Virus record (IMG/VR): IMGVR_UViG_2671180378_000012
Strand: one strand, 5' to 3'
DNA: 4,183 bases
Source: a virus
Taxonomy: Duplodnaviria; Heunggongvirae; Uroviricota; Caudoviricetes
Of this stretch, positions 2,344 through 4,183 are shown one piece after another. Each line of letters begins with the position of its first letter. Within the stretch, counting starts at the first letter, position 1. Both the position numbers and the translations under genes were made by a program. Below the pieces are notes generated by a model that saw only the letters and a list, made by a program, of their open reading frames with translations, was not told the origin of the DNA and ran no database searches.

Positions 2344-2973
2344 ATGACACAGACTGAATCAGCGATTCTGGCGCATGCCCGGCGGTGTGCGCCTGCGGAG
2401 TCGTGCGGCTTCGTGATAAGCACGCCGGAGGGGGAACGGTATATCCCTTGTGTGAATATCTCTGCAGAGCCGGAGGCGTATTTTCGTATCGCACCGGAAG
2501 ACTGGCTGCGGGCAGAGATGCAGGGGGAGATTGTGGCACTGGTCCACAGTCATCCCGGTGGACTGCCCTGGCTGAGCGAGGCTGACCGGCGGCTGCAGAT
2601 AAAAAGCGCACTGCCCTGGTGGCTGGTCTGCCGGGGTGACATTCATAAATTCCGCTGTGTGCCACATNNNNNNNNNNNNNNNNNNNNNNNNNNNNNNNNN
2701 NNNNNNNNNNNNNNNNNNNNNNNNNNNNNNNNNNNNNNNNNNNNNNNNNNNNNNNNNNNNNNNNNNNNNNNNNNNNNNNNNNNNNNNNNNNNNNNNNNNN
2801 NNTGCGGCAACGGTGAACTGCTTCACCATATACCTGAACAACTGAGTAAACGGGAGAGGTATTCTGAAAAATGGCAACGACGAACGCATTCTGTCTGGCG
2901 TCACCGCCACTGGTCCGCATCTGCCTTCACGGGGATTTACAACGATTTGGCCGCCGCCTCAGCCTGTATGTGA
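2344..2973 (+). CDS. K: Tail tip assembly protein K (MPN/JAMM metallopeptidase-like N-terminal domain, NlpC/P60-like C-terminal region); interrupted by N-masked block
   Basis: ATG at 2344 is 10 nt after the L stop and begins MTQTESAILAHARRCAPAESCGF... A JAMM motif H-S-H-x7-S-x2-D is readable at 2545-2586 (HSHPGGLPWLSEAD). The C-terminal tail ...GELLHHIPEQLSKRERY...AFTGIYNDL is lambda gpK-like. Stop TGA at 2971-2973. 135 nt of N (2668-2802) hide the middle of the protein. The ORF-track version (2083..2973) is an upstream in-frame extension that overlaps L and is not believed to be translated. Confidence 0.82.
   Translation: MTQTESAILAHARRCAPAESCGFVISTPEGERYIPCVNISAEPEAYFRIAPEDWLRAEMQGEIVALVHSHPGGLPWLSEADRRLQIKSALPWWLVCRGDIHKFRCVPHXXXXXXXXXXXXXXXXXXXXXXXXXXXXXXXXXXXXXXXXXXXXXCGNGELLHHIPEQLSKRERYSEKWQRRTHSVWRHRHWSASAFTGIYNDLAAASACM
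2668..2802. other. Run of 135 N (masked or assembly gap) inside gene K
   Basis: Literal n characters in the sequence. Length is a multiple of 3 and the K frame is kept across it, but the true underlying length and content are unknown. Confidence 0.99.
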
Positions 2974-3353
2974 ACACGGCAGCGGAGGCCATCCGTGCCC
3001 TGTCGCTGCAGGTGCCGGGATTCCGCCGTCAGATGAACGAAGGCNNNNNNNNNNNNNNNNNNNNNNNNNNNNNNNNNNNNNNNNNNNNNNNNNNNNNNNN
3101 NNNTGCCAGCATGATACTGGGTGGTGTGGCTCAGATGCTGGCCCCGAAGGCTAAAGTACCGGAGTACAAAAGCACGGATAACGGCAGACAGAACACGTAC
3201 TTTTCCTCGCTGGATAACATGATTGCACAGGGGAACCCGATGCCGGTGCCTTACGGTGAAATGCTGGTTGGCTCACGGCGAATCTCCCAGGACATCAGTA
3301 CCCGTGATGAAGGCGGTGACGGGAAGGTGGTGGTTATCGGGCGGCAGGCATAA
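2871..3353 (+). CDS. I: Tail tip assembly protein I (ubiquitin-like N-terminal domain family); interrupted by N-masked block
   Basis: ATG at 2871 begins MATTNAFCLASPPLVRICLHGDLQRFGRR... and the C-terminus is ...GGVAQMLAPKA...QNTYFSSLDNMIAQGN...GEMLVGSRRISQ..., both clearly lambda gpI-like. Stop TAA at 3351-3353. It starts 103 nt before the K stop in a different frame, the same overlap I recall for lambda K/I. 59 nt of N (3045-3103) hide the central region. Confidence 0.85.
   Translation: MATTNAFCLASPPLVRICLHGDLQRFGRRLSLYVNTAAEAIRALSLQVPGFRRQMNEGXXXXXXXXXXXXXXXXXXXXASMILGGVAQMLAPKAKVPEYKSTDNGRQNTYFSSLDNMIAQGNPMPVPYGEMLVGSRRISQDISTRDEGGDGKVVVIGRQA
3045..3103. other. Run of 59 N (masked or assembly gap) inside gene I
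   Basis: Literal n characters. The flanking frame is continuous only if the gap length is taken at face value, so the true length is uncertain. Confidence 0.99.
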
Positions 3354-3390
3354 AAGCGAAAAAATCCCGCAGTGACCGAAGGCTGCGGGA
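3352..3390 (-). terminator. Putative intrinsic-terminator-like hairpin oriented on the minus strand, abutting the I stop codon
   Basis: Perfect 8-bp stem, TCCCGCAG (3365-3372) pairing with CTGCGGGA (3383-3390), with a 10-nt loop. On the minus strand it is followed by TTTTTTCGCTTTT (complement of 3352-3364). On the plus strand it is followed by an A-rich stretch, not a U-tract. Confidence 0.35.
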
Positions 3391-3497
3391 ACAGAAAATG
3401 AAGATTAACCACAGGGAGTTTTGTTTTTATTGGCCCGAAAAAACTGTAACGCCCGGGAATGATATCTGCCACGGGGGCGTACAGAAAATGTGAAGAT
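3391..3497. repeat. Short direct repeat, ACAGAAAATG followed by AAGAT, two copies 90 bp apart in the I-J spacer
   Basis: Exact 10-mer ACAGAAAATG at 3391-3400 and 3481-3490. Copy 1 continues AAGAT, copy 2 continues TG then AAGAT. Both copies sit just 3' of a G-rich hairpin-like segment and are followed within about 25-33 nt by TTTTTATT. Confidence 0.4.
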
Positions 3498-3523
3498 ATT
3501 CAGAATTTTTATTCAGTCATGAT

Positions 3524-3557
3524 ACAGGCATCCTCCGGGATGCCTGTTGTTTTTGTG
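3524..3557 (+). terminator. Putative Rho-independent terminator-like hairpin on the plus strand, about 30 nt upstream of the J start
   Basis: 10-bp stem, ACAGGCATCC (3524-3533) pairing with GGATGCCTGT (3538-3547), with a tetraloop TCCG, followed directly by the T-rich tract TGTTTTTGTG (3548-3557). Confidence 0.45.
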
Positions 3558-3588
3558 CGTAACAGTTATCACAGTAAAGGGTGAGACA

Positions 3589-4183
3589 ATGGGCAAAGGT
3601 GGCGGCAAGGCGCACACGCCGGTTGAGGCAAAGGACAATCTTAAGTCCACGCAGATGATGAGCGTGATTGATGCGATTGGTGAAGGGCCGATTGAAGGTC
3701 CGGTGAAGGGGCTGCAGAGTATTCTGGTGAACAAAACCCCGCTGACGGACACGGACGGTAATCCTGTGATACATGGTGTGACAGCGGTCTGGCGCGCCGG
3801 GGAGCAGGAGCAGACACCACCGGAAGGCTTTGAGTCCTCCGGGGCGGAAACCGCACTGGGCGTGGAAGTGACGAAGGCAAAGCCGGTGACGCGCACCATT
3901 ACGTCCGCGAACATTGACCGCCTGCGGGTCACCTTCGGGGTGCAGTCACTGGTGCAGACCACCTCAAAGGGCGACCGTAATCCCTCTTCTGTCCGACTGC
4001 TGATTCAGTTGCAGCGTAACGGTAACTGGGTGACGGAAAAGGATGTCACCATTAACGGCAAGACCACCTCACAGTTCCTGGCCTCGGTGATTCTGGGTAA
4101 TCTGCCTCCCCGTCCTTTTAACATCCGGATGGTCCGGGAGACAGCGGACAGCACCCCGGACCAGCTGCAGAATAAGACGCTCT
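3589..4183 (+). CDS. J: Host specificity protein / central tail fibre J, N-terminal portion; 3'-partial, continues beyond the window
   Basis: ATG at 3589 begins MGKGGGKAHTPVEAKDNLKSTQMMSVIDAIGEGPIEGPV..., strongly resembling the lambda gpJ N-terminus, including ...EQEQTPPEGFESSG...TRTITSANIDRLR...GDRNPS...NLPPRPFNIRM...DQLQNKTL. I translated the frame by hand and found no stop to the window end at 4183. It is missing from the ORF track only because no stop lies inside the window. Confidence 0.92.
   Translation, partial: MGKGGGKAHTPVEAKDNLKSTQMMSVIDAIGEGPIEGPVKGLQSILVNKTPLTDTDGNPVIHGVTAVWRAGEQEQTPPEGFESSGAETALGVEVTKAKPVTRTITSANIDRLRVTFGVQSLVQTTSKGDRNPSSVRLLIQLQRNGNWVTEKDVTINGKTTSQFLASVILGNLPPRPFNIRMVRETADSTPDQLQNKTL

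Follow-up and report, generated by a model that had tools for sequence, protein, structure and literature searches.

A terminator-like hairpin and an antisense PasB-like small RNA gene in the spacer between tail genes I and J of a lambdoid prophage

Genes and features around the I-J spacer

We analyzed a stretch of DNA of 4,183 nt (hereafter, the window), whose content, according to its open reading frame (ORF) list and the annotation of homologous regions, is the tail-tip region of a lambdoid prophage; the nearest phage records to it are those of Stx-converting and related lambdoid phages. A first-pass annotation of the window had placed a hairpin upstream of J in a lambdoid tail operon, and this gene context is borne out: I ends at 3353, J starts at 3589, and the hairpin (3524-3547) lies between them, all three being on the + strand, which is the late-operon strand. 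The genes and features that we refer to are the following.

11-1309: H (tape-measure), 3' end only
1306-1635: M
1635-2333: L
from 2344: K, partly N-masked
2871..3353, + strand: I (tail assembly protein I), TAA stop at 3351-3353, partly N-masked; the E2348/69 homologue is annotated as 'tail assembly protein'
3354-3588: I-J spacer, 235 bp
3359..3437, - strand: PasB-like small RNA (sRNA) gene, by homology to PasB and EcOnc22/23/24; 5' end placed by homology, to within a few nt
3359..3389, - strand: intrinsic terminator of the PasB-like RNA, stem CCCGCAG/CTGCGGG (3383-3389 with 3366-3372), U-run at 3359-3364
3443..3472, - strand: putative PasB-like core promoter, -10 TACAGT (3448-3443), -35 GTGGCA (3472-3467), 18-nt spacer, start at ~3436
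3489..3504, no strand assigned: CRP-like site TGTGAAGATATTCAGA, of the form TGTGA-N6-TCAGA, 15/16 to TGTGA-N6-TCACA
3524..3547, + strand: hairpin with a perfect 10-bp stem, 6 G-C pairs and a TCCG loop
3524-3533: 5' arm of the hairpin, ACAGGCATCC
3534-3537: loop of the hairpin, TCCG
3538-3547: 3' arm of the hairpin, GGATGCCTGT
3548..3557, + strand: U-rich tail TGTTTTTGTG, 7 U in 10 nt
3589-3591, + strand: J start ATG, homologue annotated; Shine-Dalgarno-like AAGGGTGAG at 3577-3585

Two stretches of the window are N-masked, 2668-2802 in K and 3045-3103 in I, and the frames of these two genes are therefore uncheckable in the window. Of 5426 complete E. coli genomes, 706 contain the I-J spacer, unannotated; the median copy number among these 706 is three. 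A scan of the window against Rfam with E <= 1 returned nothing relevant. We also considered a 41-codon ORF (3459-3584) that spans the hairpin, and rejected it since its frame is not kept in variants with loop indels.

Most of the spacer is filled by an antisense sRNA cassette, which the first-pass annotation had missed; what it said about the form and orientation of the hairpin stood, while the small upstream transcript that it proposed found no support (see below). PasB is an 83-nt Hfq-dependent sRNA of EPEC E2348/69, encoded on the minus strand at NC_011601.1 1466343-1466261, between E2348C_1436 and E2348C_1437 (PMC8550237). The PasB-like RNA of the window (3359-3437) is identical to it at 60 of 75 positions (80%), and shares with the PasB family the location between I and J, the antisense strand and a 3' terminator with a U-run. 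The published northern probe for PasB (Table S6, PMC8550237) matches positions 3363-3375 of the window on the opposite strand. The terminator of the PasB-like RNA abuts the stop codon of I; its inner part was found by our terminator scan, a fold of it was made, and the same element lies at the 3' end of PasB in E2348/69. In the RefSeq records examined, the PasB-like gene at 3359-3437 carries no annotation.

EcOnc22, EcOnc23 and EcOnc24 of EHEC Sakai are candidates from an Hfq-CRAC screen that run at ~85 nt on northerns and are destabilised without hfq (PMC4104026). We located them in the I-J spacers of Sp15, Sp14 and Sp11, respectively, antisense to the tail genes (in Sp15 at NC_002695.2 ~2902846-2902926), and by sequence they appear to be homologues of PasB; the PasB papers name no EHEC homologue. 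A placement of the EcOnc22-24 peaks on the antisense strand of the hairpin itself was rejected, since it came from misreading NC_002695.1 coordinates on NC_002695.2: the offset between the two versions is +139 to +143 when judged by AgvB1 and +136 when the 3' end of StxS1 is set against tR', and applying it moves the peaks to the PasB-like RNA. The unshifted coordinates hit the hairpin because the offset happens to equal the distance from PasB to the hairpin. PasB and EcOnc22-24 thus occupy the same spacer as the hairpin, and their homologue here is antisense and 87 nt to its left, but they are a different element on the other strand with a terminator of their own, and serve only as context for it.

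Between PasB of E2348/69 and the PasB-like genes of the window, Sp15 and Sp9, identity is ~75-80%, and the exact words in common are no longer than 15-17 nt. Nevertheless, when the window is compared with loci L001, L122, L123, L023 and L025, these genes are seen to keep a core (AAYAAYTCCYT ... TTAATCTTC) and the terminator. Judging from these sequences, the PasB family is wider than a BLAST census with a word size of 28 would detect; moreover, the EHEC PasB-like copies are multicopy, as opposed to the mostly single-copy PasB that has been reported.

Sakai Sp9 (NC_002695.2 1794147-1794772) has an annotated L homologue of only 438 nt, and K and I are missing from it, presumably owing to a deletion in a defective prophage; it keeps the PasB cassette, the CRP-like site and the hairpin directly upstream of J. 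On NC_002695.2, the U-tracts of the I|J hairpins of Sakai fall at about 1794731-1794737 (+) in Sp9 and, on the complement, at about 2902734-2902740 in Sp15, 2676665-2676671 in Sp14 and 2166715-2166721 in Sp11. Two other kinds of sRNA were considered and rejected: the AgvB/AsxR-type anti-sRNAs, suggested by the CA-rich antisense sequence by the hairpin, have their genes downstream of PR' and are unrelated in sequence, and for HnrS (EcOnc10-12), suggested by its spacer-like copy numbers, EcOnc12 lies ~15 kb upstream of J in Sp9.

The putative core promoter of the PasB-like gene was placed by reading the sequence and by aligning it with that of E2348/69 and further variants, and was missed by the consensus promoter scan. 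The CRP-like site is the only such match in the window, where 0.09 are expected by chance, and it is the best-conserved block of the spacer, being kept in variants with differing flanks. Its centre (3496.5) precedes the predicted PasB-like start by ~60.5 nt, a spacing of the class I type, and the site may function at the PasB-like promoter. PasB has been reported to be higher in overnight LB than in DMEM, and CRP-repressed Spf behaves oppositely in the same data; as a sign of CRP control, this pattern is suggestive only. CRP is not mentioned in the PasB papers, and neither CRP nor promoters are mentioned in bioRxiv 10.64898/2026.05.13.724894. As a separate matter, we considered a class I or class II sense promoter that would use the CRP-like site for a small RNA or for J, and rejected it, as there is no acceptable -10 at the required distances.

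Structure and conservation of the hairpin

The 10-bp GC-rich stem, the tetraloop and the tail were found at 3524-3557 exactly as first described. They present what is expected of an intrinsic terminator, namely, a G+C-rich stem (about 5-12 bp) with a short loop and a U-rich tract directly 3' of it; the U-tract of the tail is broken by a G at its second position. On the opposite strand, no U-run follows the stem. In our terminator scan, this is the sole strong + strand terminator-like site of the window, the other + strand match being a 6-bp stem at 2459. The distance to J, however, had been given as ~30 nt and needs correction: the stem ends 41 nt, and the T-run ~35 nt, before the ATG at 3589.

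The terminator proposal had been made to depend on the hairpin folding better than shuffled sequence, and it does so. The RNA of positions 3520-3560 folds with -19.3 kcal/mol, compared with -8.5 +/- 2.3 kcal/mol for 200 dinucleotide shuffles of the same segment (z = -4.6), and 0/200 shuffles are as good. The 24-nt hairpin alone has a folding energy of -18.8 kcal/mol, and is thereby stronger than the I|J hairpins of lambda, HK639 and mEpX1 (next section), as well as tR' of an Stx1 phage. When 41-nt segments are ranked by raw folding energy, the hairpin is outside the ten lowest of the G+C-rich window; what distinguishes it is the score after correction for composition, the combination of a perfect stem and a T-run, and the A+T-rich intergenic surroundings.

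IMG/VR loci, phages and E. coli genomes yielded 16 distinct versions of the block, taken from TTTTATTC to past the T-run, and 15 of the 16 were used for a covariation alignment. Stem cells are paired in 98% of cases in these 15 variants, versus 35-49% when the 3' partner is slid. One stem pair alternates between U-A and C-G, with six sequences each, two U-G intermediates and one mismatch, and wobble pairing (nine cells) occurs as G-U on the + strand only, an argument for the + strand RNA as the selected molecule. Since a single pair carries the covariation and 19 of 500 shuffles reach the observed score, the support that it lends is modest; at that level, it is compatible with selection acting on an RNA helix of the + strand that precedes a U-tract. 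Within the tail, the central TTTT (T44-T47 of the alignment) is the same in all 15 variants, and similarity stops right after the tail.

The block is kept between mosaic flanks, with different PasB variants on its left and at least four unrelated J leaders on its right. It sits exactly where freely combining mosaic segments meet, a position that would also suit a hairpin without RNA function, be it a 'linker' retained because homologous recombination of mosaic modules runs through it, the relic of an older insertion, an incidental palindrome or a DNA-level site, and one recombinant variant does have a C.A mismatch in its stem. However, the compensatory U-A/C-G change via U-G and the strand-specific wobbles point to selection of an RNA helix, and unrelated hairpins with T-runs are found at the same junction in four J families and in an alternative module (see below); we regard a function-free hairpin as very improbable.

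The I-J junction in related phages

For a survey of this junction, IMG/VR loci were retrieved with five J N-termini, and the 200 nt upstream of J were searched on the + strand by the same rule as in the terminator scan. Of the 27 distinct upstream sequences with a window-type J, 24 contain a + strand terminator-like site in these 200 nt; the same junction has one in 60/60 distinct upstream sequences of the HK639 type, 64/65 of the HK022/mEpX1 type and 54/54 of the lambda type, as well as in 4/37 of the SPN3UB type. The background within the upstream tail genes is 0.02-0.32 terminator-like sites per 200 nt. The window-type exceptions are loci with a sodC-like gene, described below, and the one recombinant with the stem C.A mismatch. 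A canonical hairpin with a T-run precedes J in ev017, phi458, Serratia phage Niamh, HK639, mEpX1 and the virulent T1-like Shfl1; no hairpin is found at the junction of SPN3UB, where the I-J gap is 9 nt.

In HK639 (HM208537, 19137..19160) and mEpX1 (JQ182727, 14410..14431), the depositors annotate the site as 'terminator' or 'rho-independent terminator'. The intrinsic-terminator form and sense orientation claimed by the first-pass annotation are hence supported by the sequence, by its conservation and by positional analogues that others have annotated as rho-independent terminators. The HK639 and mEpX1 terminators share with the hairpin of the window the junction, the late-operon strand, a G+C-rich stem, a 4-nt loop and a T-run, but their sequences are dissimilar, and their stems are of 7-8 bp with ~-12 kcal/mol, compared with 10 bp and -18.8 kcal/mol in the window. 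Furthermore, they end 16-17 nt before the J start, as opposed to 41 nt, and their spacers of 52-55 nt have nothing else inside, whereas the hairpin of the window is preceded by a 170-nt antisense sRNA cassette.

Lambda itself carries GAAACCGCC-TGCG-GGCGGTTTT 20 nt before J, in a 60-nt I-J spacer. This hairpin (J02459, ~15466-15489: GAAACCGCC TGCG GGCGGTTTTG) resembles that of the window in position, strand, tetraloop and U-rich 3' side, and is kept in 54/54 lambda/ev017-type upstream sequences, with changes in the loop only. On the other hand, it is unannotated in the lambda record, an A-run further upstream pairs with part of its U-run, it is 20 nt from the J start, and its homology with the hairpin of the window amounts to at most a few short words. 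Full-text literature searches turned up no account of an I-J terminator in lambda. The stem of the window hairpin is unrelated in sequence to those of the lambda, HK639 and HK022-type hairpins, and the I|J class is thus a positional and functional one rather than a sequence family. The recurrence of hairpins at I|J seems to have no prior explanation.

In Shfl1 (L217 697-773), the junction before the J homologue reads ACCCGC CTTGC GCGGGT TTTTTTTT, followed by an extended -10-like TGTATAAT; this arrangement suggests that the junction is a true operon boundary in this phage, where transcription also starts anew.

The geometry of these hairpins bears on another reading, in which the hairpin is a stability or processing element of the late mRNA, that is, a 3' shield of the H-M-L-K-I message against 3' exonucleases once it has been cleaved, or a 5' structure that stabilises or insulates the J message and its ribosome-binding site (RBS). 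The HK639, HK022/mEpX1 and lambda hairpins end 16-20 nt before J, with the U-tract running into the J Shine-Dalgarno region, and termination alone does not require such a fixed 16-20-nt geometry; in addition, the structure appears to be selected on the + strand RNA, which is the late mRNA, and Q-modified polymerase would put the hairpin in every late transcript. However, the invariant T-run and the loss of conservation beyond it are the signature of a terminator and would not be needed in a protective hairpin, and the hairpin of the window, 41 nt from the start codon, is without the tight RBS coupling seen elsewhere. We consider a stability or processing role unlikely.

The content of the junction also varies. 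A common alternative spacer retains both PasB and the CRP-like site and has its right part swapped for unrelated DNA (~190 bp); this alternative right half (L017 5620-5830, L023 and L031, from IMG/VR) contains a strong + strand hairpin, CCCCGGTATC-TGCT-GATACCGGGG, followed by TTTCTCTTT. The alternative hairpin resembles an insertion within a weaker hairpin, GCATGAAA...TTTCATGC followed by TTTT, which is intact in L090. At another IMG/VR locus (L025 ~4760-6000), an insertion sequence with a transposase orfA-like ORF lies to the right of the CRP-like block and replaces the hairpin region. Finally, 14 of the 75 loci with a window-type J have an antisense Cu,Zn superoxide dismutase (sodC-like) gene between I and J. 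In these sodC loci (L130 350-1200; also L131, L141 and L177), the sodC-like gene has a strong terminator of its own, adjoining a remnant of the PasB terminator, and no sense terminator before J was found in these 14.

Antisense morons, with PasB or sodC as cargo, seem to have a hot spot at the I|J junction. The moron concept reportedly goes back to Juhala et al. in 2000. Morons are extra DNA between adjacent or nearly adjacent genes, with their own promoter and terminator, and are tolerated in a Q-antiterminated operon; the PasB-like cassette would be of this kind. However, a classical moron is co-oriented with the late operon, and its terminator is the sense terminator, whereas here the cargo (the PasB-like RNA, or sodC in L130) is antisense. 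For this reason, the sense hairpin is not the terminator of the cargo, and resembles instead the junction terminator of moron-less phages.

The small upstream transcript proposed by the first-pass annotation can be considered against these variants. In this reading, the hairpin would end a separate sense sRNA of ~70-90 nt, made from a promoter that lies in the PasB promoter region and diverges from that of PasB, and having the A+U-rich block 3481-3523 as its body. The part of the spacer from 3484 to the T-run is its most conserved part, the layout is that of an Hfq-type 3' half (A/U-rich single strand, G+C-rich hairpin and U tail), the left half of the block is retained in the alternative module, which has a different sense terminator at its end, and the -10-like element of the PasB promoter region is near-palindromic (TTATAA) in several variants. 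Yet the CRP-like site at ~-60.5 of PasB accounts for the conservation of the block's left half, the promoter scan found nothing on either strand (it also misses the PasB promoter) and no candidate is conserved, and in relatives whose I-J spacers measure 52-68 nt, a terminator of this kind is present although the spacer is too short to hold a gene.

Published RNA data point the same way for EPEC. The full RIL-seq RNA list of E2348/69 contains no RNA from the pasB-E2348C_1437 spacer and no 5'UTR of E2348C_1437 (J), although it does name IGR RNAs beside pasA and pasC. As to EHEC, the Hfq-CRAC screen of Tree et al. dropped sense peaks within 100 bp of coding regions (PMC4104026) and could therefore not report a sense RNA at the hairpin; within this limit, there is no EcOnc entry on the sense strand there. 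As the documented sRNA of the spacer is antisense with its own terminator, the RIL-seq list is empty at this place and the 52-68-nt spacers are roomless, the proposal is not sustained, and a separate sense sRNA seems to us quite unlikely.

Proposed role of the hairpin in the late operon

Taking the evidence together, the hairpin is probably the local intrinsic terminator of the I|J junction, a non-homologous equivalent of the one found there in the majority of lambda-like siphophages, and it would stop unmodified polymerase and be read through by Q-modified polymerase. Its structure, strand bias, conservation and recurrence at the junction were observed, and from these we infer termination itself and its effect. 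According to this model, the PasB-like moron, with its promoter and CRP-like site, would have been placed between the I stop and the terminator in this lineage. Unmodified polymerase may move rightwards in the spacer as a result of read-through, spurious starts or firing of the divergent PasB promoter region; it would then form the 10-bp hairpin, pause at the U-tract and be released ~35 nt before J, so that neither J nor the late genes distal to it would be expressed in the lysogen. In the lytic cycle, polymerase arriving from PR' with the Q modification would ignore the signal, and J would be made.

In lambda, Q-modified polymerase reads through late-operon terminators such as tR'. As regards Q control here, the window stops short of the Q region; in Sakai Sp15, where the hairpin family of the window lies between I and J, the late genes are preceded by tR' and an annotated antiterminator Q. 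Established lambda biology then predicts that the site is ignored by Q-modified polymerase and acts on unmodified polymerase only; read-through of the hairpin by Q-modified polymerase would be consistent with this arrangement. Both tR' and the hairpin are intrinsic terminators by form, lie on the late-operon strand and, in Q-bearing lambdoid prophages, are expected to stop unmodified polymerase and to be overridden by Q, but tR' is located just downstream of PR' and is a known control point, whereas the I|J hairpin lies >10 kb further down the operon and has no documented transcript end. In Stx phages, the transcript truncated at tR' is a regulatory sRNA, StxS (PMC7547250).

Among the three roles proposed earlier for the hairpin (the end of a small transcript, attenuation, and processing or stability of the J message), attenuation of unmodified transcription in a lysogen fits best. 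Its most likely purpose would be to block rightward transcription of the spacer, for which the PasB cassette is one possible source, from reaching J in the lysogen. Since tR' already silences the upstream late genes in lysogens, a second stop at this very junction is hard to explain. The hairpin is also dispensable, as sodC-type and SPN3UB-type junctions are without one.

A sense transcript running through the spacer up to the hairpin is fully complementary to the PasB-like sRNA. The hairpin could accordingly be more than a passive stop, as the end of an 'anti-PasB' 3' tail on the I message, as part of a CRP-linked two-strand cassette, or as a conserved checkpoint of J dosage, a set of ideas to which we attach a low probability. 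If they were true, a discrete 'anti-PasB' tail would sponge PasB or be cleaved with it, the cassette would tie a trans-acting sRNA to carbon status and to the late operon of the prophage, and the near-universal I|J terminator would set the dosage of J, the tail-tip protein, even for Q-modified polymerase.

The hairpin itself is probably an ordinary, unannotated intrinsic terminator at a junction that is already annotated with one in relatives. Because unrelated hairpins recur there in four J families, we view the junction as a selected operon boundary that also looks like a hot spot for antisense morons. The identity of the PasB homologue and EcOnc22-24, the CRP-like site and the moron hot spot may be of interest to the prophage sRNA field, and the PasB family including EcOnc22-24, together with a conserved CRP-like site at class I distance, would offer a testable handle on the timing of a virulence-associated sRNA.
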